In this document: positions 4,034-24,408 of the stretch, one piece after another
Layout of the letters: the number at the start of each line of letters is the position of its first letter
How positions within the stretch are numbered: the stretch's first letter is position 1
NCBI GenBank assembly: GCA_038206875.1
Contig: JBBRAK010000002.1
Span: 12,333-76,332 of the forward strand
DNA from: Candidatus Saccharimonadales bacterium
GTDB lineage: Bacteria > Patescibacteriota > Saccharimonadia > Saccharimonadales > JBBQAJ01
Reading direction: 5' to 3'
DNA: 64,000 bases
Position numbers and translations under genes: made by a program
The notes under the pieces: model-generated
Databases searched by the model: none
The model's input: the letters and a program-made list of their open reading frames with translations, nothing else
What the model was told of the DNA's origin: nothing

Positions 4034-4108
4034 GGTCCCATCGTCTAATGGTTAGGACACCAGGTTTTCATCCTGGCAATAGGAGTTCGATTCTCCTTGG
4101 GATCACCA
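4034..4108 (+). tRNA. tRNA-Glu (anticodon UUC), CCA encoded
   Basis: Cloverleaf folded by hand. Acceptor GGTCCCA/TGGGATC (one G-U). Anticodon stem CCAGG/CCTGG with loop TTTTCAT. T-arm AGGAG-TTCGATT-CTCCT. Discriminator A followed by CCA. Confidence 0.9.
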
Positions 4109-5648
4109 TAGCAGAATTTGCAACCGAATCAGCCTCCATTTCAGACGTAATACATCTGTAAAGGGGGCTGATTTCGTTGATTATAAAGTTCTGCTTTTTA
4201 GTATCGTATTCAAACCCGCTGGGGAAGATGAGTGCTTGGAACTTTTGCTTTCGTTCTAATGAAGCGTCTGACCACTGTTTTGCAACGTTACCCATAAAGT
4301 TCAGGGCGTATTCTATGTTTGATTCACTAACAGTTTGTTGTTGCTCTAGTTCGTTGATTTCTCGGCTAACGTCAATCTTTTCTATGTCTAGGTCGTCTAC
4401 GACCATAGCCTTTTCCTCGTCAGTTAAGCCACCGTTCACGTACTTCTTAATAGTATTCGCCCTCGTCTTGGCAATACCGTCTAGCTTGTCACGTAGCTGT
4501 GCGAGGTCTTCATTAAGACTACCTAGCTCTTTCACTGACGTGCGAACCAGCACTTCTTTCATAAGTTTAATGGTTTTGGGCTTAGGCGCAATCTTCGTAA
4601 GTAAGTCTTCAAACCCTAGGTGGGCGTCTTCTACTAATACCGAACCAGTGCCACGGCAGCTTTTCCTTGCACAGTAATAACGATACTCACCGCCAGGATT
4701 GCTGCGAGTCATGTGTTTGTGACAGTTCGTGCAGTTTATGAAGCGACTAAGTGGTGCCATGTTATTTATTTTATGATGTTTTAGCCCAATCAGGTACACT
4801 TTATTTTTCTGCTTTAGTAATTCCTGATTCTGCCAAAAGGTAGCTTCGTCAATAAGTGCGGGGTGCTTACCCTGAACAATTTCTTTACCCGTAAAAGAAT
4901 CACACACAAAACCAGCGTATTCGGGGCGTTTGAGCATTTTAGTCATAACCTCTTGGTTAATGGGTTTACCGTTCAGCCCAAAGAAATCTATGCAAGTGGC
5001 GTAACGGCACATTTCAGCGATAATCTTGTCGCCCTTATTGAAACGCATAAGTATCTTAGCTACTTTGTCGGCTTCTGCTCCTTTCGCCATTGTTGGGCGT
5101 TCATGCCCTTCGGAGTTTTTAATCTTTTGCGACTTATAACCTCGTATGGGCTTATGTTGCCAGTAGCCTTGTTTGGCAAGGCGGGTCATGTTATCTATAA
5201 CGGTTTCACGCTTATTCTCGTTGTCTAGTTGTCCAACCATGACGTATAGGCTTTCCATGAATTTACCCATTGGACTATCATCAAATTGCTCGGTAGCAGA
5301 ACGTATTTGTATGCCTTTAGACGCTAGGATAGAACGCATACCCATTATGTAGCTATCTATGTCACGACTTGCACGGTTCATCTTGTAGACAATGACGTAG
5401 TCTATCGTGCCTTTCATTTTCAGGGCGAGTTTAAGTAGGTTCTGTAGTTCTTCTCGGTCTGTATTCTTGCCAGACTTGGCTTCATCAAAGAACCACTTCA
5501 CAACGTTAATGCCGTTAGCGTCAGCGTACTTTTGTATTACCTCACGCTGGTTCTTCTTGCTTTCGCCCTTGATTTGTTTCTTGTCGGAAATACGAAGATA
5601 GCCGAGTGCGGCTTTCTTTGGTTTAATAGTATTTATTGTATCTGACAT
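4068..5648 (-). CDS. large serine recombinase (integrase)
   Basis: 526-aa ORF. N-terminal resolvase catalytic motifs (GYLRISDKKQ, DEAKSG, NRASRD), a central recombinase domain, a Cys cluster (CTNCHKHM..YYCARKSCRG, zinc ribbon) and a coiled-coil C-terminus. The last 13 codons are antisense to tRNA-Glu. Confidence 0.9.
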   Translation of the reverse strand: MSDTINTIKPKKAALGYLRISDKKQIKGESKKNQREVIQKYADANGINVVKWFFDEAKSGKNTDREELQNLLKLALKMKGTIDYVIVYKMNRASRDIDSYIMGMRSILASKGIQIRSATEQFDDSPMGKFMESLYVMVGQLDNENKRETVIDNMTRLAKQGYWQHKPIRGYKSQKIKNSEGHERPTMAKGAEADKVAKILMRFNKGDKIIAEMCRYATCIDFFGLNGKPINQEVMTKMLKRPEYAGFVCDSFTGKEIVQGKHPALIDEATFWQNQELLKQKNKVYLIGLKHHKINNMAPLSRFINCTNCHKHMTRSNPGGEYRYYCARKSCRGTGSVLVEDAHLGFEDLLTKIAPKPKTIKLMKEVLVRTSVKELGSLNEDLAQLRDKLDGIAKTRANTIKKYVNGGLTDEEKAMVVDDLDIEKIDVSREINELEQQQTVSESNIEYALNFMGNVAKQWSDASLERKQKFQALIFPSGFEYDTKKQNFIINEISPLYRCITSEMEADSVANSAMVIPRRIELLLPG

Positions 5649-5690
5649 AAGTATATTTAAGGTTATAATGGACTAATTGGCAAGTATATT

Positions 5691-5882
5691 CTATTTAAGT
5701 AATTCTAGAGCTAGGTCTTCTAGCTGTAAAATCAAGGGAATGAGCTGACTATCACTCAAGTCTTTGGCGGTGTACCCCAATATCTTGCGGGCTTCTTTCG
5801 GGGAAATGATGAGACTCGCTGTAAGTTGCTCTAATGTCGGTTCCTTTGTTTTCATAACATTTATCCAAGGGTCGGTCAGCAA
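5691..5882 (-). CDS. small hypothetical protein (candidate Xis/RDF by position)
   Basis: 63-aa ORF, probable start at M10 (5855), lying between the two recombinase-family genes. No motif recognised. Confidence 0.45.
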   Translation of the reverse strand: MLTDPWINVMKTKEPTLEQLTASLIISPKEARKILGYTAKDLSDSQLIPLILQLEDLALELLK

Positions 5883-5904
5883 TTAACCAACCGACCCACG
5901 AGCA

Positions 5905-6381
5905 TTAGCCTAGTAGCCCCGTTGAGTCATGCTGTTGCATACGTTTTGCCAAACCCTGCTTAACACGCATTGAGCGTTGTTCTGACTCGAACTGTTCGAG
6001 CATAAGTTGTATAGCTTCCATAAAACGACCCATTGGCTCATTAGTGTTTGTGCTGCACTGGTCAGTGGTCACGACATCGACATCGTGACGTGCAAGAGCG
6101 TTTTTGAAAAACATAAATTCGCAGTAGTCACGGCTAATACGAGCGTTGTTTTGTACGATTAGGGTGCTGATTTCTGGGTGATTCTCGCAGTACGTTATTA
6201 TCTCGTCTAATTGTTCAGCAGAGATTTTACCGATACACATAAAGTACGTTTGAATGCTTAAATAGTGCCGTCCTGCGTACTGCTCAATTTTGGCTTTTTG
6301 GCTCGCTAGGGAATTACCCGTTTTTGTTTGTTGCTTATGTGTTGCACGCACGAATGCGATTGCTTGTTTTGGAGTTTTCAT
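5905..6381 (-). CDS. resolvase catalytic-domain-only paralogue (Ser to Thr at nucleophile position)
   Basis: 158-aa ORF that aligns to the N-terminus of the adjacent recombinase: AFVRATHKQQ vs GYLRISDKKQ, ARISRD vs NRASRD, EPMGRFMEAI vs SPMGKFMESL. It has no recombinase, zinc-ribbon or HTH domain. Confidence 0.7.
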   Translation of the reverse strand: MKTPKQAIAFVRATHKQQTKTGNSLASQKAKIEQYAGRHYLSIQTYFMCIGKISAEQLDEIITYCENHPEISTLIVQNNARISRDYCEFMFFKNALARHDVDVVTTDQCSTNTNEPMGRFMEAIQLMLEQFESEQRSMRVKQGLAKRMQQHDSTGLLG

Positions 6382-6437
6382 ATCGTTAGTTGTTCCTTGT
6401 GTTAAGTAGTGAGATGTATCTATATGTAGTATTGAAT

Positions 6438-6561
6438 TAGTAACCTATGTAGTAATTGAGGGAATCCATAAAGAGTTATCCATTAAGCAGTAACTCTGTA
6501 TAAGTACCTATAAGCTGTATAGTTTCAGTAACCTATACAGTTCTATATAGAGAACCTATGG
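6438..6561. repeat. iteron-like repeat cluster in an AT-rich intergenic region
   Basis: AGTAACCTAT at 6439-6448 and 6527-6536, AGTACCTAT at 6503-6511, AGAACCTAT at 6551-6559. Inverted repeat CTGTATAG (6515-6522) / CTATACAG (6533-6540). Confidence 0.6.
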
Positions 6562-6587
6562 CGGTGTATGGAGTAGAACGCTAGTCA

Positions 6588-6956
6588 TTAGAAGCTACCG
6601 TCTGTGCTGGGAAATTGGTCGTTCAGTTTATTGTCACGAATGTAACTGTCAGCAGCACGCATGGCTTCATCACGAATCAGGTCTAAGAAAAAGCTGTCGC
6701 CACTGAACTCAATTGGATTAACCCACTTGCCAGCTAAGAAGCTCGGCATTTGGAACCACAGATTGTTGTATTTCGGCGAGGGGCGAACTGTGCAACTGTT
6801 GATGTACATACGCAGACTTGGTATATGCACCTTGATGTACATGATGTTCTTCTGGCTGTTGAAGGCGTAGACTTGGGCTGTTACGTCAGTCATATCTAGT
6901 TGCATGACTGTTCTCCATGTATGTTGTGCCATAGCAAGTGCAATAGGTCGTACCAT
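6588..6956 (-). CDS. hypothetical protein, weakly SpoVG-like
   Basis: Maximal ORF is 122 aa. The likely start is M18 or M22 (6905 or 6893), adjacent to the upstream stop. The pattern M-DVT.., ..FQMPS.., NPIEF faintly recalls SpoVG. Tentative. Confidence 0.45.
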   Translation of the reverse strand: MVRPIALAMAQHTWRTVMQLDMTDVTAQVYAFNSQKNIMYIKVHIPSLRMYINSCTVRPSPKYNNLWFQMPSFLAGKWVNPIEFSGDSFFLDLIRDEAMRAADSYIRDNKLNDQFPSTDGSF

Positions 6957-7273
6957 TCTTCAGTGTTCTGGTAGCGTTCACAGAAAATACGATCCAGCTG
7001 GGCTTCTACGATTTCTACATTCAGGCACTTACGGCGTTGTTGCTTTATGTAGAACTTCTGACGTAACCAGCTCGGCTTCGGCTTGCCAGCCTGTACAAAT
7101 AGCCACTTAGCCGCAGCAAGCTGCTGACGTGTGATTGTTATTTCGTTTTTAGACGAAACTTTCATCTGAGAAGTCGTGTCAGAAATCGTTGTTTGGTGGT
7201 CAAGAGCACTATTGATGTGTTCTGGCTCATTTTGATTGTTTTTGTTGTGACTTTCTTTCTTAATGTTTTTCAT
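6896..7273 (-). CDS. hypothetical protein
   Basis: 125-aa ORF in the same operon orientation as its neighbours. N-terminus is polar and low-complexity. No motif recognised. Confidence 0.5.
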   Translation of the reverse strand: MKNIKKESHNKNNQNEPEHINSALDHQTTISDTTSQMKVSSKNEITITRQQLAAAKWLFVQAGKPKPSWLRQKFYIKQQRRKCLNVEIVEAQLDRIFCERYQNTEEWYDLLHLLWHNIHGEQSCN

Positions 7274-7361
7274 ACAGAAACCTTTCTTTGTGAGCTAGTC
7301 GGCGGGACAAGTGATTGCCGATTCGCTCATTAACCTGTCCTGCATATAATTATCGAGGCAT

Positions 7362-7393
7362 AAAAAAGAGATTCCCGACAGAGCCGAGAATCT
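7362..7393 (-). terminator. rho-independent terminator (minus strand)
   Basis: On the minus strand, stem AGATTC/GAATCT (7369-7374 / 7388-7393) with a 13-nt loop is followed by TTTTTT (plus-strand A-run 7362-7367). It lies just downstream of the 7428-8255 gene. Confidence 0.55.
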
Positions 7394-7427
7394 TAAAACA
7401 ACACCTTACAATTCTCTGAATTGCAGA

Positions 7428-8255
7428 CTATTTGGGTTTTACTGTATTGACAAGCCTTTCAATAATCGCTGCTTCACTACTGTTGAGTGATTTGTGCGGA
7501 TTGAGCATTATTGTTTGTTCTTTTGTATTGACGCTCACGAAGATGTCTTTTATTTCGCCAGTGAAGCCCATGAGCTTCGGCCAGTCTTTCGCCTTTGAGC
7601 GTATTGTTTTGAAGTGTGTGCCTAGGTCGTCTTTCTTTACCCATTCGTCTGGCCTGACTAGGAGGTACTTTACCAAGTGATAGTTGAAACGCTTTCTGCT
7701 GTCAAAGCGTTTAATTGTAAGAGTAATACCTAGGTAACTCAATTTTAATGACTGCTGGACTAGGAATATTTTAGCGATATGGTTGCCATTCAATCCAGTG
7801 GTCTCCATGACAAGCCGTGGCATTGGATTCTCATTTGGATTGAATCCGTGAGATTCGCAGAACTGTATAAAACGGTCATGGTCAAAGCTATCAAGGAAAC
7901 GTAGCCAATCATACTCACGATGTGCTGGATCAGTGGTGTTCCAATCGCCCCATACGGTGTTTGTCCACTCCTTAGGTATATTAGAATTAAATGATTTGGC
8001 AATCTCTAGCTCTTCCTGTGCTTGCAGCACTTGGTTACGATACCAATTTTCGTCAGAGCGAGTTTTTAATACACCTGCTTGTGTTAGCGTCTCAACGGCA
8101 CGGTCTTCGTCAGCAACATTGTCCAAGTTCTCATTAGACGAAAGCTTGTTGTCCCAATCAAATACCCAACGGCGGTCATCAAAATCACTACCGTCAAGAA
8201 ATAAGTTGTTGAGCTTGAAGACCACTCGCTGTAACCACTTATTATTGTCTGCCAT
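7428..8255 (-). CDS. hypothetical protein (possible DNA-binding or replication function)
   Basis: The ORF track gives 7428-8417. I prefer ATG at 8255 (MADNNKW..) because the 8417 start would overlap the divergent 8359 gene. Trp/Asp-rich with no recognised domain. The functional guess is from position only. Confidence 0.55.
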   Translation of the reverse strand: MADNNKWLQRVVFKLNNLFLDGSDFDDRRWVFDWDNKLSSNENLDNVADEDRAVETLTQAGVLKTRSDENWYRNQVLQAQEELEIAKSFNSNIPKEWTNTVWGDWNTTDPAHREYDWLRFLDSFDHDRFIQFCESHGFNPNENPMPRLVMETTGLNGNHIAKIFLVQQSLKLSYLGITLTIKRFDSRKRFNYHLVKYLLVRPDEWVKKDDLGTHFKTIRSKAKDWPKLMGFTGEIKDIFVSVNTKEQTIMLNPHKSLNSSEAAIIERLVNTVKPK

Positions 8256-8358
8256 CAGGGGTAGTATAACCGCCTGACAACAGTAACTCAAATGCTGATA
8301 CCTGATCCAATCTGTAATAATAGGTATAGGGATTAACACAAAAACAAAGGATTTACTC

Positions 8359-8592
8359 ATGGCGGTTAAAAACACTGTCGGCCGGCCACCGAAAATGTCG
8401 ATGAAAATACTCGACAAATTATCTGATTCAATTTCCCACAGTTACAGTGTCGGTGACTCGTGCCGCTATGCGAAAATTTCGAAAAGCACTTTTTACCAAT
8501 ACCTAAGAAGTGAGCCAATCTTTGCGGATAGAATTGCCACTGCTCGGGAAAACCAACGTAAAGTAAGCTTTAATTTTCGCACATTTTATTAG
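8359..8592 (+). CDS. small HTH protein (terminase-small-subunit/resolvase-type HTH, possibly a remnant)
   Basis: 77-aa ORF. GRPPK plus CRYAKISKSTFYQYL..FADRIATARE resembles the N-terminal HTH of phage TerS-like proteins. The ORF ends shortly after. Confidence 0.5.
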   Translation: MAVKNTVGRPPKMSMKILDKLSDSISHSYSVGDSCRYAKISKSTFYQYLRSEPIFADRIATARENQRKVSFNFRTFY

Positions 8593-8828
8593 CTTAACCA
8601 GTCGCATTGTAGACGATTTCGCTAAAATCAATGTCTGAAAATTAGTACCTCGCTCAAGCTGGTTAATGTTGGAAAATGGCGTTGAAGTGTAAAAAATCTG
8701 GAAAAATAATTCCACGGGCTAAATAGGTCTTTTTCAGCTCAAAATAATGAACGAACCCTTAGCAATATCGCTCTCTGTGGGCTCTCTGGAGCGTCTAGGA
8801 CGTGTTCGTACACGAAAGTCGAGTAAAG

Positions 8829-9053
8829 CTACAACCCTTTGAACAATTGCTCTAATGTGATGTCTAGTGAATTAGCAATTTTATGGAGTGTTGAGAGCGT
8901 AGGCTTTCTGCGTCCTTGTTCAATATAGCCCATATGTGAGCGGTCTATGCCACTAGCTGAAGCGAGCTTTTCTTGGCTCATGCCTTTATCATTACGAGCC
9001 TTCACGATTCTCTTACCGATTTCAGCATAAACGTGGTCAATGGTTGATTTCAT
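8829..9053 (-). CDS. XRE/Cro-CI family transcriptional regulator
   Basis: 74-aa ORF with a classic HTH_3 pattern (MSQEKLASASGIDRSHMGYIEQGRRKPTLSTLHKIANSL). Confidence 0.85.
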   Translation of the reverse strand: MKSTIDHVYAEIGKRIVKARNDKGMSQEKLASASGIDRSHMGYIEQGRRKPTLSTLHKIANSLDITLEQLFKGL

Positions 9054-9078
9054 TAACCTAAGCGTATTGCTTACAAAA

Positions 9079-9124
9079 GTCAGTAACCACTGACAGATGT
9101 CAGCGAGTATGATATATTACTGAC
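9079..9124. promoter_or_regulatory. operator array between the XRE gene and the divergent DUF4352 gene
   Basis: Overlapping palindromes GTCAGT-aacc-ACTGAC (9079-9094) and CTGAC-agat-GTCAG (9090-9103). A further ACTGAC lies at 9119-9124. Confidence 0.55.
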
Positions 9125-9150
9125 AAATGTAATCAAGAGAGGTTTCCAGA

Positions 9151-9741
9151 ATGTCAGAAGAAAAGAAGAAGAAGAACTGGTTCGCAAAGCACAAGATACT
9201 AACCGTAATACTTGCGATTATCGTAATTGCAGTAGTAGCTAACGCTGCTGGTGGCGGTAGCAAGAGTAATAGCTCTACAAGTGGTGGTAGCGGTAATAGT
9301 GGTAGTGGCGAAAAGACATACAAGTTTAATGAGCGAGCCGACAAGCAACCAAAAGATGTAGAAGTATTGCCCGGCGAAACAGCAACCGTAAGTGGCGTTA
9401 AGATGACCTTATCGGGTGTAGAATACAAGACCGCTGTGAGCGACTATGAAAAAGCAGATGACGGTAAAACCTACGTTGTTGCTGACGTTACGCTTGAGAA
9501 CACTACTGATAAAACACAGTCGTATAACTCATTGTATTTTCGTATGCAGACCGCTGGTGGACAGGTGCTAGATAGCACGTTTGCTACTGTTCCTAGTCCG
9601 TTAAATTCTGGAGACATTGTAGCTGGCGGGAAAGTCACTGGTAAGGTGGTCTTTGAAGTACCAGTAGAAGACGGTCATCAGTACGTTATTTGGAAGCCGG
9701 GTGCTTACAATGCAGACCGTGCTATCGTTCAGGTAAAGTAG
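9151..9741 (+). CDS. DUF4352 domain membrane-anchored protein
   Basis: 196-aa ORF with an N-terminal TM, a Gly/Ser linker, then a DUF4352-like Ig domain (TYVVADVTLENTTDKTQSYNSLYF, GGKVTGKVVFEVP). Confidence 0.75.
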   Translation: MSEEKKKKNWFAKHKILTVILAIIVIAVVANAAGGGSKSNSSTSGGSGNSGSGEKTYKFNERADKQPKDVEVLPGETATVSGVKMTLSGVEYKTAVSDYEKADDGKTYVVADVTLENTTDKTQSYNSLYFRMQTAGGQVLDSTFATVPSPLNSGDIVAGGKVTGKVVFEVPVEDGHQYVIWKPGAYNADRAIVQVK

Positions 9742-9763
9742 TCAAGTTAATTTAGTAAAGTAA

Positions 9764-9788
9764 GGGGCGGCAGCTGTCGCCCCTTTTT
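9764..9788 (+). terminator. rho-independent terminator
   Basis: GGGGCG (9764-9769) / CGCCCC (9778-9783), 8-nt loop, followed by TTTTT (9784-9788). Confidence 0.8.
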
Positions 9789-9867
9789 CTTAGTTGACGT
9801 TTATTGCTTATGCTTGTGTTGCTTATTTGTTAATTATATAATCTAGGTAATTATTTAAGGAGTTAGC

Positions 9868-10872
9868 GTGTCAGCCGAAATACTAAGCCAATATAGCGAC
9901 TCGCCAGAAGCATACAATCCTCTAGCGAACCACCCAGACCCAGAGCAACTAGTTCTAAATAGCTTAAATCAAGGTACAGTCCTTGCGGGACGTGAGAAGC
10001 CATTTACTTGGGAGTTAGATAACATAACTTCCGAGGGTGCGTTACACCGTTATCGTGCGGAAGTAGAAGTAGAAGCACTCATTAACCTTGCAGAACGTGG
10101 ACCAGTGGATATTGAGATGAGTAGTGCCGACAAGCTCGTTCTCCGCAGCTTGTATGATGAAGACCACTTTGACCCAGACACAGTTATTCGGCTTGACCAC
10201 TTGGGTTATAAGGGTCAGCCACCATTAGAACATGACGTAAAAGCGGTGGAAGTTTATCTTGCGGAACAGTTGGACGAATATAGCCTAGGACATCTAAAAG
10301 AATGGGTTCACTTTGGTATGACTTCGGAAGATACTAATAATCTTGCTTACAACCTCATGCTTCGTGACGCTGCGAATAAAGTTATTGTTCCTTCTGTTAC
10401 ACGTGTTGCTGACCGTTTAGCTCACCTAGCAACTGTTTATGCAGATACCCCTACACTTGGTGTTACTCACGCTCAAAAAGCTTCACCGACTACCGTTGGT
10501 AAGCAGTTTGGTTACTTGCTGGCAAACATTACTAAAGTATCGGAAGAATTAGACGGTAAGCGTTTGAGCGGTAAGTTCAGTGGTGCTGTTGGCAATCACA
10601 ACCCAATGACCGTATTGTTCCCAGAGTTTGACTATGACGAATACTCAAAAGACTTCGTTGAGGGCATGGGCTTTACCTATGCTTCTGTTGAGAACCAGCG
10701 AAACGACCACCTTGCAGTAACCGATTTGCTATCAATCGTTTCTAGACTTGCGTTGGTAGGTAAAGACGCTACTGATAATGTTTGGTTGCAGATACTAGGC
10801 AACAAGCTAACACAACGACTTGTAGCTGGCGAAAAAGGCTCATCTACCATGTCTCACAAAATTAACCCTTAG
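9868..10872 (+). CDS. adenylosuccinate-lyase-like protein, N-terminal part ending at in-frame TAG
   Basis: GTG start with AAGGAG at 9857-9862. Fumarate-lyase family motifs present: HDVKAVE, TSEDTNNL, THAQKASPTTVGK, GAVGNHN, GSSTMSHKINP. The ORF stops immediately after the signature. Confidence 0.75.
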   Translation: MSAEILSQYSDSPEAYNPLANHPDPEQLVLNSLNQGTVLAGREKPFTWELDNITSEGALHRYRAEVEVEALINLAERGPVDIEMSSADKLVLRSLYDEDHFDPDTVIRLDHLGYKGQPPLEHDVKAVEVYLAEQLDEYSLGHLKEWVHFGMTSEDTNNLAYNLMLRDAANKVIVPSVTRVADRLAHLATVYADTPTLGVTHAQKASPTTVGKQFGYLLANITKVSEELDGKRLSGKFSGAVGNHNPMTVLFPEFDYDEYSKDFVEGMGFTYASVENQRNDHLAVTDLLSIVSRLALVGKDATDNVWLQILGNKLTQRLVAGEKGSSTMSHKINP

Positions 10873-10917
10873 AGATTAGAGAACGCTGAATCCCTCTTTG
10901 GACAAGCGATTGCTTTA

Positions 10918-12039
10918 ATGAGTCGTGCACCAGAGGGGCTTGTAGCAAGCCGTCACGAAAGAGACTTATCAGACCACGGCTGGCAGCGTGCCTACGGTGA
11001 TATGATTGGGCGAGTTGTTGCTGGCTTTAATTACTTCGCAGTTCAGCTTGACCGACTTGCTGTTGACGAAGACGGTGCTAGAGAAACACTGAACCAGTCT
11101 GCTGAAGTTTTGAGTGAGTTAGTTCAGACTGCTGGGCGTGTATCAGGGGATCCAGACGCTTATGACAAGGTGGTTACACTAACTCAGGGCAAGAAACTTG
11201 ACCTAGCGGGTATTCGTGAGGTTATTGACGAAGCCTTGCCTGACGGTGAATTAAAAGACCGTGTTGCTGCTGTTACGCCAGATATGTATGTCGGTGTTGC
11301 TGGCGAGAAAGCCCGTGAAGCGGTGCTGGGCTGGCACGCAGCAAAGTTGATTCTAAGACGTGGCGTGCTTGATGAGTCAACAAGTATTGACGCAGTATTG
11401 TTTGACCTTGACGATACGCTTCACTTCGGAGTTAAAGATGAGGTCATTGCAAAGCTAACGCACATATTTGGTGAGTTTGAATCTGGCTTTTCAGAAGAAG
11501 AAATCAAAGATTACTCCAAGATACACGACTTCAGTAAAATGGTTGAAGCAATGGTTGCTGAACACAATGTTCGTAGCTCAACAAAGCTAACAGTTGATGA
11601 CTTTATGACGGCTAACGGTAGAGTTACTGGTAGCTTTGACCATATGTTTTACGCACCAACAGAATCAAAAGAAGTTATTCAGACAGTGCGTGAAAGCGGT
11701 AAAGTGACGGGACTTGTCACAACGAGGGGTCCAGTATCGCTAGGTCGTGTGCTTGATTTGCACGGCTTTAGTGATTCGTTTGATGTGATAATTGGCGGTG
11801 GAGATGTAAAGAGGCGTAAGCCACACCCAGAACCATTAGCAATAGCACTCGGCAAGCTTGGAATTAACCCAGAACGTAGTATGTATGTGGGCGATGACCA
11901 AGACGCTGATGTTGGTGCTGCCATGGCTCTAGGAATGAAAACTGCTTTAGTTGGTGAAACTCCTCCAGACCCATACGGTCCAAAGCCAACTTATCATTGG
12001 AAAGACTTGCAACCACTCGCAAGGCTATACGCCCGATGA
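10918..12039 (+). CDS. C-terminal part of the same lyase fused to a HAD phosphatase domain
   Basis: Same frame as 9868-10872, and codons 10873-10917 are also open. Lyase C-terminal motifs SRHERDLSDH and LTQGKKLD. HAD motifs DLDDT, TTRG, KRRKPHPEP, GDDQDAD. Confidence 0.75.
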   Translation: MSRAPEGLVASRHERDLSDHGWQRAYGDMIGRVVAGFNYFAVQLDRLAVDEDGARETLNQSAEVLSELVQTAGRVSGDPDAYDKVVTLTQGKKLDLAGIREVIDEALPDGELKDRVAAVTPDMYVGVAGEKAREAVLGWHAAKLILRRGVLDESTSIDAVLFDLDDTLHFGVKDEVIAKLTHIFGEFESGFSEEEIKDYSKIHDFSKMVEAMVAEHNVRSSTKLTVDDFMTANGRVTGSFDHMFYAPTESKEVIQTVRESGKVTGLVTTRGPVSLGRVLDLHGFSDSFDVIIGGGDVKRRKPHPEPLAIALGKLGINPERSMYVGDDQDADVGAAMALGMKTALVGETPPDPYGPKPTYHWKDLQPLARLYAR

Positions 12040-12605
12040 TTCACAAGATACCCATTTCTGGCGGACCATGCACAGGTAAAACAACGCTTGTAGAAGCATT
12101 ACATGAACGCTTTCCCGACGCTTACTTTGTTGATGAGCCAGCCACACGAGTTATAGAACGTGAGCTTGATTTTGAATCAAGACATGATGATTATGAACCA
12201 AAAGTTCCATGGCTCGACTACCCTAACTTTGCCCCAATGGCAATTGCAGAGTCAATTGCACTTGAGGACTCAATTCCTTACGAGGCTGGTGTGACATTTC
12301 TAGACCGTAGCCTAGTTGATAACATTGCCTATGGTCGTATTAACGGCTTTGAGGACTTAATACCCGATGTGCAGCTTAGAATATGGCTTGCACGCTATAG
12401 CTTTGCACTAATTTGCCAACCACTTGAACAGTACCTAGCAACAGAAGTAAGACGGGAAACAGCAGAAGAAGCACTGTTCACACACGCAGCCATTGAAGAA
12501 GCATACAGAGAATCCGAACTGGAAGTCGTTACCTTACCGCCAGTGAGCGTTGCCGACAGATTGTCATTGGTAGAGATTGCACTGCAAGAACGTGGACTAC
12601 TTTAG
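12036..12605 (+). CDS. AAA_28/NadR-kinase-like P-loop NTPase
   Basis: Start chosen at ATG 12036, which overlaps the upstream TGA (ATGA). Walker A is ISGGPCTGKTTL. Overall pattern matches AAA_28 ATPases. Confidence 0.65.
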   Translation: MIHKIPISGGPCTGKTTLVEALHERFPDAYFVDEPATRVIERELDFESRHDDYEPKVPWLDYPNFAPMAIAESIALEDSIPYEAGVTFLDRSLVDNIAYGRINGFEDLIPDVQLRIWLARYSFALICQPLEQYLATEVRRETAEEALFTHAAIEEAYRESELEVVTLPPVSVADRLSLVEIALQERGLL

Positions 12606-12894
12606 TACATCAAAAAACAATGAGATTATAAATGGCTTTTTTGTATTGTGAGTTTGTATCGTACTTTACGCCTGATTTGGCAAAGGCGACTTTCTAACTC
12701 GCAAGGCTCTTTTCGTCTAAATCTATAGTCGTACACACTATTATATTCTGCAATGGGGGATACTAGTGACTACTTAGCAAGCTGTAACTGATTACCGCCT
12801 AGGTTCATTCCCTTGAGTAGCTCGTTCCATCTAATGATTTCCGCCACTATAACCTTATAAACCGATAGGGGTAGGGTCACCATTATCGCAAATC

Positions 12895-17144: not shown

Positions 17145-19295
17145 GTGTTAAACGACTTATTGGCGGGGCTTAACCCGGAACAAATGCGGGCTGTAGAAGC
17201 CACCGAAGGACCTCTGCTAATTCTTGCTGGAGCAGGAAGTGGCAAGACCAAAACACTCACCCACCGGATTGCTCACTTGATAGCTTCACGTAAAGCGACA
17301 CCCTACAATATATTGGCGGTAACTTTTACCAACAAAGCAGCTAAAGAAATGCGCGAACGGGTTGCTGAGCTGACGGGGGAAAATGCACAGATCCGCAGTT
17401 TTATGCCTTACATGGGAACATTCCACGGGATTTGTGTCCGTATCCTTAGGCAAGATGGCGAACACGTGCATGTTCCAAAAAACTTTGTAATATTTGACGA
17501 AAGTGACCGGCAAAGTGCAGTAAAACAAGCTAGCAAACAGCTCATGCTGGACGAAAAGGCCTATACTTCTAGGGCAATTTCTAGCTTGATAAGTAGTGCC
17601 AAAAACGAACTTATTTCTCCTGCCAACTATGCAGGCATGGGCAGTGGCCCTTTGCATAAAGCGGCCGCTCAGGTATATCCTCTGTACCAAAAAATTCTAA
17701 AAGATAATCAAGCACTAGATTTTGATGATTTAATTGGCAGGGTAGTACAACTTCTTCAAACAAACCAAGAGATTCGAGATAAATGGCGTAAACAGTTTGT
17801 ATATATAATGATAGACGAATATCAAGATACCAATGCAGCGCAGTACAAGCTGATAAAACTTCTCACTAACGACAAACACAACATCGCGGTAGTTGGTGAC
17901 GATTGGCAAAGTATTTACAGTTGGCGGGGAGCTGATTTTCGAAACATACTAAATTTCGAAAAAGACTATCCAAAAGCCACCATTATAAAACTTGAGCAAA
18001 ACTATCGAAGTACAAAATCTATTTTGGACGCTGCACATGCCGTAATTACCAAAAACGATCATCGCTCGGACAAAAAATTATGGACAGACCTCGGAGCAGG
18101 CAAGCCAGTTCAAATTACCCAAATTAATAGCGAACGGGCAGAGGGTGAAGCCATTATACGGCGAGTAAAAACGGCAACAGACATAAAAGCCCGTAGCTTC
18201 AAAGATTTTGCAGTCCTATATCGTACAAATGCCCAGAGTCGTGCTATAGAAGAGTCATTTATACGCTACGGTGTGCCTTACAGAATTGTTGGTGGACAGC
18301 GGTTTTATGACCGCAAAGAAATAAAAGATATTATGGCCTATTTACGGTTGATTTATCAGCCATCTGACAGAGTAAGTTTTGCACGTATAGTTAACGTACC
18401 TGGGCGAGGAATAGGAGCAAAATCAGTAGAAAATTTCTTTACATGGGCACAGAGCAATGAATTTTCATTGCAGGGCGCACTGCAAAGTGTGAAAAATTTA
18501 CCAGGATTAACTAACAAAGCTCGTGCAGGGTTTTTGGAACTCTCTGACGTCGTGAATTCTTTTAGAGAAATTATGGACAAAACACCTCTGCCAGTTTTGC
18601 TTGACAGTTTGTTGCGCAGGCTGGACTACATGTCATTTCTAGATGACAAAACACCGCAGGGTGATTCACGCCAGGAAAATGTAAAAGAACTTCTGAGCGT
18701 AGCCAAAAGTTATCAGGATGTGGGACTGGACGGGTTTTTGGAAGAAGTTGCGTTGATTAGCGACATAGACAGTGCTGATTTTGGCAACAACGCCGTCACT
18801 CTCATGACTCTGCATGCCGCCAAAGGCTTGGAATTTCCTGTAGTTTTTATGATAGGTATGGAAGAAACCTTATTCCCACATTCCCGAGCGCTTTACGACC
18901 AAGCCGAGATGGAAGAAGAACGACGGTTGTGCTACGTTGGTATGACCAGGGCCAAAGAAGAGCTAAATTTGCTACACGCCAGCAGTAGGCTTTTGTACGG
19001 GGGCATGCAACATAACCCGCCGTCTAGGTTTCTATCAGAAATAGACGGCGAAACCAACTTAGTCGGTGATTTTGGCGAACCAAACAACTACCAACCGTCT
19101 ATTGGGTTGCATGCTGAGGCAGAAGGTGAGGTACGATATGCACCAGATTTGGCCGAAGGTGATGGGGTTGTTCACCAGATATTTGGCAAGGGAACTGTAG
19201 TAGAGCTAGAGGGCGACAATGCCACAATCTACTTCAAAGGCAAAGGCACCAAAAAGCTAAACATAGCGTTCGCCCCGCTAGAAAAGTTGTCCTAA
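17145..19295 (+). CDS. pcrA: ATP-dependent DNA helicase PcrA/UvrD
   Basis: GTG start. Motifs AGAGSGKT, DEYQDTN, QNYRS, TLHAAKGLEF, YVGMTRAKE. Confidence 0.92.
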   Translation: MLNDLLAGLNPEQMRAVEATEGPLLILAGAGSGKTKTLTHRIAHLIASRKATPYNILAVTFTNKAAKEMRERVAELTGENAQIRSFMPYMGTFHGICVRILRQDGEHVHVPKNFVIFDESDRQSAVKQASKQLMLDEKAYTSRAISSLISSAKNELISPANYAGMGSGPLHKAAAQVYPLYQKILKDNQALDFDDLIGRVVQLLQTNQEIRDKWRKQFVYIMIDEYQDTNAAQYKLIKLLTNDKHNIAVVGDDWQSIYSWRGADFRNILNFEKDYPKATIIKLEQNYRSTKSILDAAHAVITKNDHRSDKKLWTDLGAGKPVQITQINSERAEGEAIIRRVKTATDIKARSFKDFAVLYRTNAQSRAIEESFIRYGVPYRIVGGQRFYDRKEIKDIMAYLRLIYQPSDRVSFARIVNVPGRGIGAKSVENFFTWAQSNEFSLQGALQSVKNLPGLTNKARAGFLELSDVVNSFREIMDKTPLPVLLDSLLRRLDYMSFLDDKTPQGDSRQENVKELLSVAKSYQDVGLDGFLEEVALISDIDSADFGNNAVTLMTLHAAKGLEFPVVFMIGMEETLFPHSRALYDQAEMEEERRLCYVGMTRAKEELNLLHASSRLLYGGMQHNPPSRFLSEIDGETNLVGDFGEPNNYQPSIGLHAEAEGEVRYAPDLAEGDGVVHQIFGKGTVVELEGDNATIYFKGKGTKKLNIAFAPLEKLS
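19232..19276 (+). repeat. copy 1 of a 45-bp perfect direct repeat (inside the pcrA 3' end)
   Basis: CTTCAAAGGCAAAGGCACCAAAAAGCTAAACATAGCGTTCGCCCC, identical to 19375-19419. Confidence 0.95.
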
Positions 19296-19374
19296 AAAGG
19301 GAAAAGAGCAACCAGACAAAATGTATTCCATTTTGCCTGCGTGATGAGAAAAACCGTAGGTTTGTCTTATGGGT

Positions 19375-23483: not shown

Positions 23484-23898
23484 GGGGCTGAAATTATGCT
23501 CGACGTTGGACTTTAACAGTTAGATCAGCAGGTCGCTTGTCAGCGTTATAGACAAACAATCGTAATTGCAACAGCTTTTACACGCGCAAAGAACTTTTTG
23601 CAGGACGGTGTAGCAACTTTGGTTGCTTCATTGACACCACAACTATCTTACGCAACTCTTTCAGCTTAATTGTCTGGAAGCATGCCTGAAACGACTCCAG
23701 TTAGTATCGGTGCATGATATATTTTCTGGACGCTCAAATACTCATGACCCATGACATTTGCTAAGACTTAGGGTAATCAGAGACTACTTTTTGGTCATTC
23801 ACCAGTAGACCTTTGATAAATTTAAATGACACAAACCTGTAGGATAGACTAACTAGCTAAACTAGCGGACGCGGGGGCAGTTCCCGCCAGCTCCTCCA
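23484..23898 (+). ncRNA. ssrA: tmRNA (SsrA)
   Basis: 5' GGGGCTGAAATTATGCTCGACG pairs with 3' ..GGACGCGGG-GGCAGTT-CCCGC-CAGCTCC-T-CCA, keeping G3:U70. An internal open frame ends ..LSYATLSA with TAA at 23667-23669 and is the candidate tag. The T-loop and discriminator are atypical. Confidence 0.85.
23880..23898 (+). repeat. direct repeat DR1 (tmRNA 3' end)
   Basis: GTTCCCGCCAGCTCCTCCA. Confidence 0.95.
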
Positions 23899-24081: not shown

Positions 24082-24168
24082 TTCTACTTTGCCAAGGCTT
24101 CGTAGAATTGGCTAAGTCGAATGCCCTCCATAGCTTTATGCGACGGAGGGCCTTATTATATAATTTAT

Positions 24169-24408
24169 ATGTATTATGTTTATGTTTTGAAAAGTGAAAA
24201 TAATGAAGCAATTTATACGGGATATACGAGAAATCTAAAAACTAGACTGAGAGAACATAACTCTGGCAAGAGTACACACACAAACAAATATAAACCCTGG
24301 AAAATATTAGTTTACTTTGCGTTTGAAAATGAGAAATCTGCAAGAAATTTCGAAAAATATCTTAAGACCGGTTCTGGAATTGCGTTTGCCCGCAAACATT
24401 TACTCTGA
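24169..24408 (+). CDS. GIY-YIG nuclease family protein (single-domain, YhbQ/UPF0213-like)
   Basis: Start chosen at ATG 24169. MYYVYVLKSENNEAIYTGYTRNLKTRLREHN matches the GIY-YIG core. 79 aa, lying between DR2 and DR3. Confidence 0.8.
   Translation: MYYVYVLKSENNEAIYTGYTRNLKTRLREHNSGKSTHTNKYKPWKILVYFAFENEKSARNFEKYLKTGSGIAFARKHLL

Follow-up and report, generated by a model that had tools for sequence, protein, structure and literature searches.

A PurB-like lyase–HAD phosphatase fusion coupled to an AAA_28 gene in Candidatus Saccharimonadales, interrupted by a probable recent nonsense mutation

The locus described here is a two-gene module in a 64,000-nucleotide stretch of a Candidatus Saccharimonadales genome (GenBank assembly GCA_038206875.1, contig JBBRAK010000002.1, positions 12,333 to 76,332 of the forward strand), referred to below as the window. 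The first gene encodes an adenylosuccinate lyase (PurB)-like domain followed by a HAD phosphatase domain and is interrupted by one in-frame TAG, while the second encodes an AAA_28 P-loop protein. Direct translation of positions 9868-12039 gives 724 codons in a single frame with this TAG as the sole internal stop, and the joined fusion product is 723 aa long once the stop is ignored. An earlier inspection of the letters, made without database searches (the sequence-only reading), had held that two open reading frames (ORFs), 9868-10872 and 10918-12039, lie in one frame parted by the TAG alone, and that the first ends one residue past the fumarate-lyase signature GSSxMxxKxNP, the catalytic-Ser loop; both statements hold. 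Each motif it listed was located in the joined translation, and the architecture it proposed for profile searching, a PurB-like lyase with HAD and AAA_28, was matched by Pfam: Lyase_1 at residues 125-347 (6.9e-28), ASL_C at 361-475 (3.4e-19) and HAD_2 at 510-695 (3.6e-23) of the joined product. The ATG of the AAA_28 gene shares bases with the TGA of the fusion in an ATGA overlap, by which the second gene is predicted to be translationally coupled to the first. The features are collected in Table 1; no second copy of the module is present in the window.

Table 1 Features of the fusion–AAA_28 module and of the DNA upstream of it, in window coordinates
Feature	Position	Strand	Remarks
tRNA-Glu(UUC)	4034..4108	+	3' end toward element and module; overlaps integrase 3' end by 41 nt
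Integrative-element/prophage remnant	4068..9741		Between tRNA and module; components listed separately
Large serine integrase, 526 aa	4068-5648	-	
Truncated resolvase	5905-6381	-	
Terminase-small-like helix-turn-helix (HTH) fragment	8359-8592	+	
XRE repressor	8829-9053	-	
DUF4352 protein	9151-9741	+	
Intrinsic-terminator-like hairpin	9762..9785	+	Closes upstream DUF4352 gene; marks module as a separate transcription unit
Shine-Dalgarno AAGGAG	9857..9862	+	5 nt ahead of fusion GTG start; read from the sequence
Fusion 5' part, 334 codons	9868..10872	+	N-terminal two thirds of PurB-like lyase, to GSSTMSHKINP, plus TAG
E43 codon	9994..9996	+	Clade-specific; replaces phosphate-binding Tyr16 of E. 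coli PurB (GRY to GRE)
In-frame TAG	10870..10872	+	At Trp335 position; G-to-A transition at 10871
15 open codons (RLENAESLFGQAIAL)	10873..10917	+	From TAG to next ATG (10918)
Fusion 3' part, 373 codons	10918..12039	+	End of lyase helical bundle, ASL_C and complete HAD-IA domain
HAD-IA phosphatase domain	about 11353-12036	+	Within 3' part; DLDDT, T618, K651, GDDQDAD
AAA_28 P-loop protein, 189 aa	12036..12605	+	Nucleoside/nucleotide-kinase fold; stop is TAG; Pfam 1.1e-24

To place the stop, homologues were retrieved from a search space of 5.8 billion protein clusters. More than 100 uninterrupted homologues of 703-735 aa share the same architecture, the best of them 94-95% identical. The sequence-only reading had proposed recording which residue such uninterrupted fusions carry at the TAG position. 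That residue is Trp in 20/20 aligned homologues; among 120 listed proteins, 119 carry Trp after GSSxMxxKxNP, the single exception being a canonical PurB with Ile, and Trp335 is invariant in all 119 homologues belonging to the clade. In the DNA of the closest relative (88% nucleotide identity), CCT TGG AGA stands where the window has CCT TAG AGA, and the TAG is therefore one G-to-A transition. The two fusion genes are of equal length with zero indels, and their codon differences comprise 103 synonymous and 18 non-synonymous changes 5' of the stop and 104 and 18 3' of it. Only three substitutions (D253E, S266G and E345G) are private to the window at sites otherwise invariant in Saccharibacteria; as a check on decay after the mutation, these three unique substitutions, compared with zero to one in relatives, are too few to interpret. 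The dominance of synonymous changes on each side of the TAG marks the lesion as recent, and together with the scarcity of private substitutions it indicates that purifying selection acted on both halves until very recently. The stop is probably a recent nonsense mutation, TGG to TAG, at the invariant Trp335, which was the first option of the sequence-only reading and is the best supported one. It is not a designed feature, and the split itself is ordinary, either a fresh pseudogene or a base error.

The lyase domain of the joined product (residues 31-478) aligns over its full length with Escherichia coli PurB (2pts_A, E = 1.3e-66, 34% identity), the reference for the domains compared here (PDB 2PTS/2PTQ/2PTR; NF006764; Lyase_1 plus ASL_C). 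The catalytic and ligand residues H122, T152/S153, H201, Q277, S325, K331, N339, S361 and R365, which include ligands of base, ribose and phosphate in PurB structures, are conserved, and the E. coli enzyme shares the catalytic Ser loop, H171, H91, T122/S123, Q247, K301, N309 and the Ser/Arg phosphate ligands. Of these, the catalytic Ser and His (S325 and H201, corresponding to E. coli S295 and H171) are invariant in the clade. The best NCBIfam model is that of the E. coli-type PurB (PRK09285, NF006764), matched over its full length. A phylogeny against genuine PurB, another check that had been suggested from the letters alone, was built as a rough neighbour-joining tree; it places the fused and split forms, interleaved, in one clade nested within E. 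coli-type PurB. The clade differs from E. coli PurB in having a C-terminal HAD domain or an adjoining HAD gene, and the window gene differs further in being truncated.

The main departure from canonical PurB lies in the pocket for the 5'-phosphate. In PurB this group is bound by Arg15, Tyr16, Asn309 and a Ser/Arg pair of domain 3 (PMC2917274), and in the Staphylococcus aureus enzyme the N-terminal and signature segments, contributed by one subunit, touch the AMP phosphate (PMC2917274). The window product retains R42, N339, S361 and R365, and Tyr16 is replaced by Glu43, leaving the ligand set incomplete. The N-terminal substrate motif that the sequence-only reading could not recognize is present in altered form, as LAGRE aligned with E. 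coli SPVDGRY (G41-R42-E43, codons 9988-9996). GRE occurs in 110 of the 120 homologues, and GRD or GRA in three more. The replacements of Tyr16 by Glu and of Ile305 by Trp (Trp335) are linked and fixed in the clade, whereas canonical PurBs of the same data set pair GRY or GRF with Ile; the two changed positions, 16 and 305, fall in the N-terminal and signature segments. These two clade-specific changes lend some support to the suggestion of a paralogue that may have altered specificity. As the TAG falls at Trp335, it removes one of the two clade-defining residues.

Two further observations concern PurB-like proteins elsewhere in the data. In a Patescibacteria contig (L037, 9346-11873), a canonical purB is followed by two tandem purA genes whose products are about 40% identical to E. 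coli PurA, and purB–purA adjacency is frequent in archaeal and candidate phyla radiation (CPR) loci. In addition, three PurB-like proteins of the representative library (P0168, P0174 and P0188; 709-722 aa) carry the lyase at about residues 240-720 behind an N-terminal extension of about 240 aa, representing another PurB fusion architecture.

HAD motifs I-IV are present and conserved in the C-terminal domain. Its structural model (predicted local distance difference test score, pLDDT, 92.3) matches generic HAD-IA folds, and motifs, HAD_2 score and model agree on a Rossmannoid core with a C1 cap. The domain shares the DxDxT, Thr, Lys and Asp motifs and the C1 cap with HAD-IA phosphatases such as phosphoglycolate phosphatase, PpaX, the YjjG/YfnB-type nucleotidases and NANP, and motifs and model alike identify it as a bona fide HAD-IA member. 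No specific HAD subfamily reached its cut-off, the best being PGP_bact with 76 against 180 bits, and the structural neighbours are too diverse to point to one substrate. A precedent for such a fusion is Acinetobacter MtlD, the bifunctional mannitol-1-phosphate dehydrogenase/phosphatase (PDB 7OCP-7OCU), whose phosphatase domain is among the structural neighbours; like the protein described here, it joins a HAD domain to an enzyme handling a phosphorylated metabolite. No description of a HAD domain fused to an enzyme of the fumarate-lyase superfamily was found in the literature searched.

The AAA_28 protein matches its Pfam family with 87.9 bits against a gathering threshold of 27, and its Walker A motif GGPCTGKT is conserved, with G9, G10, G14, K15 and T17 invariant. 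The best Foldseek matches of its model (pLDDT 93.2) are the ribosylnicotinamide-kinase domain of NadR, dCK, dGK and TMPK. The template-modelling (TM) scores against NadR (8x7f, 6gyf), dCK and TMPK are 0.6-0.73, yet sequence identity is 14-24%. The DRS motif of the AAA_28 protein aligns with the DRS/DRY segment of TMPK, and its sequence matches to thymidylate kinase in PDB and PHROG are weak. Two features distinguish the protein from NadR: it scores 24.3 with TIGR01526 against a cut-off of 341, and it is a single 189-aa domain without the nicotinamide mononucleotide (NMN) adenylyltransferase domain. It is not NadR but, judged by the model, shares the nucleoside-kinase fold. The most distant AAA_28 homologue (P0159, 45% identity; locus L061, 4001-5219) has no fusion gene beside it. 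The gene that comes after it encodes 192 aa and faintly matches nucleoside 2-deoxyribosyltransferase in Pfam, a further link to nucleoside metabolism.

Distribution and neighbourhood were compared across 46 loci from species-representative genomes and further loci from metagenomes. Fused proteins occur in Saccharibacteria (including Candidatus Saccharimonadales), Roizmanbacteria, Nomurabacteria, Levyibacteria, a TGA-recoded lineage and one entry named 'MAG: archaeon' (MAG, metagenome-assembled genome). Where the gene occurs in Saccharibacteria and other CPR lineages, it is normally intact and fused. The module is rare: there are about 110 clusters at 90% identity in the 5.8 billion and only a few at 50% identity, and the 185,579 species representatives contain about 25 fused loci. 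The AAA_28 gene, the fusion's only conserved neighbour, lies immediately 3' of it, often overlapping, in 18 of 22 non-redundant loci (two divergent copies counted), and the association is also recovered when the search starts from AAA_28. In two archaeal/DPANN-like loci (L055 and L057), a same-clade lyase of 479-485 aa is followed by an overlapping, separate HAD gene of 225-227 aa. Such alternation between fusion and adjacency from lineage to lineage is classical evidence for a joint role of the lyase and the phosphatase. The sequence-only reading had allowed that the two parts might normally be separate genes, and the locus an ordinary purB in conserved chromosomal context; instead, fusion is the rule in CPR lineages and the context is not conserved. 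That reading had not recognized the module as a described one, and no account of the fusion or the operon was found in the literature searched, which offered nothing on a PurB–HAD fusion or on purB in Saccharibacteria or CPR beyond general background.

Several homologues carry peculiarities of their own. In a bin labelled Peribacteria (L032, 1501-3561), TGA recurs in frame throughout the fused homologue where Gly is conserved (HF*RN*K is one such stretch), and this lineage therefore appears to read TGA as sense, as in genetic code 25; it retains Trp after the signature. CPR-type fusions also lie on contigs labelled Sphingomonadaceae, Woesearchaeota, Opitutae or Gammaproteobacteria (L012, L020, L022-L024 and L027), which suggests mis-binned contigs or mislabelled bins.

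Taken together, the locus is most likely a two-gene operon whose function was lost very recently through one G-to-A transition, and we hold this with good though incomplete confidence. In its intact state, gene 1 would encode a 723-aa bifunctional protein combining an E. coli-type adenylosuccinate-lyase-like domain with a HAD-IA phosphatase, and gene 2 the coupled AAA_28 protein of predicted nucleoside/nucleotide-kinase fold. In the window, translation would end at residue 334, with loss of the last bundle helix, ASL_C and the HAD domain; the 373-codon remainder would be left without a ribosome-binding site, and the coupled kinase-like gene would probably be under-translated. It is this combination that would make the operon most likely a loss-of-function allele.

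What the intact module does can be outlined from three enzyme folds with intact catalytic motifs, an obligatory lyase–HAD linkage and frequent coupling to a kinase-like gene. By its conserved catalytic residues, the lyase domain may remove fumarate from an N-succinylated purine nucleotide. The fused HAD domain could strip the 5'-phosphate from the product after cleavage, or from the substrate beforehand; the second order would fit the altered phosphate pocket. The AAA_28 partner, by its modelled fold, might serve the same salvage network by phosphorylating a nucleoside or a nucleotide. The module would thus serve as an accessory unit of purine conversion or salvage for hosts mostly without de novo nucleotide synthesis, a capacity that 93% of the Patescibacteria genomes examined lack (bioRxiv 10.64898/2026.06.21.733656).

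A number of points weigh against this account. The lyase scores 340.3 bits with NF006764 against an equivalog cut-off of 446, and 206.9 with TIGR00928 against 326.2. With the Tyr16 ligand replaced by Glu, the substrate may not be adenylosuccinate or succinylaminoimidazolecarboxamide ribotide (SAICAR). Both the equivalog score and the Tyr16 position thus speak for 'PurB-like lyase' as the safe name. In contrast to standalone purB, which purA directly adjoins in 15 loci, the fused gene has no adjacent purA: purA never occurs within 8-10 kb of any fused gene, and none is present in the window. Were the lyase, the nucleotidase and the nucleoside kinase all to act on one purine, their cycle would be futile, and the order of the steps and the substrate of the kinase are therefore guesses. 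As for the allele, the second assembly that carries the TAG (described below) probably derives from the same read set, so that an error common to one read set is possible.

The surroundings of the module bear on its mobility. Nucleotide homology with the closest relative is limited to 9804-12598; it sets in just past the terminator, takes in the promoter and runs to the AAA_28 end, and both flanks are unrelated. Flanks differ even between genomes that are 87% identical inside the module. In the closest relative, an IS1595 transposase takes the place of the tRNA and integrase, and neighbouring genes among the loci include IS1595, Mrr, Polbeta, Zeta-toxin and Fic. The element upstream of the module in the window is degraded and has ORFs of unknown kind in addition to the components in Table 1. 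In four loci, a plus-strand tRNA lies 165-316 bp 5' of the fusion with no integrase between (L011 and L014, Met; L016, Gln; L019, Trp), and in three, a tRNA is followed by a serine recombinase upstream of the fusion (the window, Glu; L013, Thr; L010, Met). With about one tRNA per 17 kb estimated for such genomes, this proximity lies far above chance; the tRNA identities differ.

As in tRNA islands with serine integrases, the tRNA 3' end faces the integrase and module in the window, L013 and L010, and the integrase 3' end overlaps the tRNA in the window and L013. The four loci with a tRNA and no intervening integrase differ from such islands, as does the lack of identified attachment (att) direct repeats and of an identified empty site, for which no search was possible. 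Between the tRNA-Glu region and the region upstream of pyk, neither att-like direct or inverted repeats nor a compositional step was found, and the island boundaries were not located. PADLOC returned no defence-system match for the fusion or AAA_28. A viral origin was rejected: IMG/VR and INPHARED yield canonical PurB only, at 26-35% identity, and no fused homologue. The module behaves as an accessory unit that mostly sits just 3' of a tRNA, with a serine integrase between them in three lineages; it may travel as island cargo or occupy tRNA-proximal integration hotspots. The sequence-only idea of a cargo carried next to a recombinase is plausible in view of the tRNA/integrase association.

Other features of these regions were recorded along the way. 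Two 38-nt direct repeats, 74% identical and 88 nt apart (6416-6453 and 6504-6541), lie between genes just upstream of the truncated resolvase and could be a recombinase or regulator binding site. In L013, a Saccharibacteria locus, the tRNA-Thr (5796-5871) overlaps the recombinase (5807-7444), which is about 21% identical to the window integrase; two GC-rich palindromic copies of about 90 nt (7807-7899 and 10822-10914), exactly 3015 nt apart, bracket the fusion and AAA_28 there and could be elements like repetitive extragenic palindromes or miniature inverted-repeat transposable elements (REP/MITE-like), or the ends of a mobile unit. Farther along the window, an 80-nt intergenic segment after a pcrA/uvrD-like gene (19292-19371) is 86.6% identical to L001 34-115, likewise intergenic but in reversed orientation, in a relative where the surrounding genes differ; no Rfam family matched the segment. 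A tmRNA-like gene (transfer-messenger RNA; 23484-23898, plus strand) occupies a 0.7-kb stretch without long ORFs. It scores 41.2 bits (E = 6.5e-15) against an Rfam gathering threshold of 47 and was seen neither by ARAGORN nor by the gathering-threshold scan. Between it and a HAD (PF12710) gene sits a 95-aa ORF (24121-24408, plus strand) with a GIY-YIG-like motif (YTGYTRNLKTRLREHNSG) recognized by eye only.

Among the alternatives to the account given above, the one that survives best concerns the intact module rather than the stop. It holds that the module is not a purine salvage unit but mobile-island cargo whose target is a succinylated nucleotide or nucleoside of a non-canonical kind, with a role in, for instance, a conflict system or the modification of nucleotides, and we give it a minor share of the probability. 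Its rarity, the unlike flanks of genomes otherwise close inside the module, the tRNA and integrase associations, the company of IS1595, Mrr, Polbeta, Zeta-toxin and Fic, the linked Y16E and I305W changes and the distance from purA all favour it. Set against these are the lack of a PADLOC match, of a fused homologue in IMG/VR and phage genomes, and of att repeats. Moreover, the remaining PurB catalytic and phosphate ligands are all conserved, and among the standalone purB genes that adjoin purA are L031 and L033, the closest sister sequences to have Trp following the signature. Its most specific form would be that the Glu16/Trp305 lyase, its obligatory HAD domain and its frequent kinase-like partner constitute a horizontally mobile tRNA-island pathway whose substrate is neither adenylosuccinate nor SAICAR, a proposal we regard as tentative at best; candidates for that substrate would be a modified nucleotide or an N-succinyl purine that is dephosphorylated or otherwise non-canonical. 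If this is true, CPR bacteria and DPANN-like archaea, which live off scavenged nucleotides, would have a new way of converting them.

The next alternative takes the TAG for an error of sequencing or consensus calling, the organism's gene being intact, with TGG at this codon. A single base at an invariant codon, in a gene otherwise perfectly conserved and without further lesion, would look just so. Public MAGs hold other interrupted copies, and these are assembly artefacts: L027 is broken by a 100-N scaffold gap and L029, at 2.7x coverage, by a frameshift. Against an error stands a Logan contig (SRR19962010_3261575) that is identical to the window over 6868-12882, a span of 6 kb, has the same TAG and carries both the 334-aa and the 373-aa products. 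As this contig was built independently, an assembler artefact is excluded. Flanking contigs of the same strain are also present in SRR19962010, which was the only run found to carry the allele, making it an independent assembly and not an independent sample; exact look-ups of the Pyk and TPI proteins of the window gave no match. Substitution errors seldom occur in short-read consensus, and all other window genes examined appear intact. A base-call error is thus less likely than a loss-of-function allele, and we consider it improbable.

A functional split is very unlikely, whether by reassembly of the 334-aa and 373-aa polypeptides or by the HAD-bearing fragment acting on its own. Separate lyase and HAD genes do occur in the two archaeal/DPANN-like loci, and the C-terminal ORF retains an intact HAD domain. 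However, where the two occur as separate genes they part at the domain junction, around residue 480-500; the break here, at residue 335, is inside the helical bundle of the lyase. It would cost sixteen residues, the invariant W335 and E338 among them; E338 and N339, both conserved, are encoded in 10873-10917 and would be missing from both fragments. Inspection of the sequence upstream of ATG 10918 found no Shine-Dalgarno motif, and the same split was found in no other genome. The break inside the bundle, the lost residues and an ATG without a ribosome-binding site therefore argue against a functional split and against read-through alike.

Least credible is decoding of the TAG by programmed read-through, a suppressor tRNA or pyrrolysine into a full-length protein, an option of the sequence-only reading favoured by a frame that stays open and conserved past the stop but contradicted by the absence of a stop here in all 119 homologues (0/119, Trp in every one), by near-cognate read-through inserting Gln, Tyr or Lys at the invariant Trp, and by the use of TAG as an ordinary terminator of 11 other window ORFs, including the AAA_28 gene. 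Stop usage in the window (TAA 28, TGA 14, TAG 12) rules out genome-wide reassignment of TAG. The window contains no suppressor tRNA or tRNA-CUA, tRNA-Glu being its only tRNA, and no recoding RNA element, since a tRNA alone passed an Rfam gathering threshold.

On the preferred reading, the stop codon is nothing unusual: a single strain has had one accessory gene knocked out. The wider interest lies in the intact fusion and its kinase-like gene, a rare, uncharacterized module of ultra-small bacteria and archaea. For the most part, CPR bacteria and DPANN archaea cannot synthesize nucleotides, and little is known of the ways in which they convert those that they scavenge. The unit joins a PurB-type lyase with a remodelled phosphate pocket to a phosphatase, a link resting on gene fusion plus gene adjacency, and usually to a nucleoside-kinase-like protein. 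It may be viewed as an uncharacterized variant of known enzyme kinds that is relevant to nucleotide metabolism in the CPR and DPANN. Identification of its substrate would show the cautious NCBI name 'lyase family protein' to be justified and would supply one defined step in how these symbionts manage their nucleotides.

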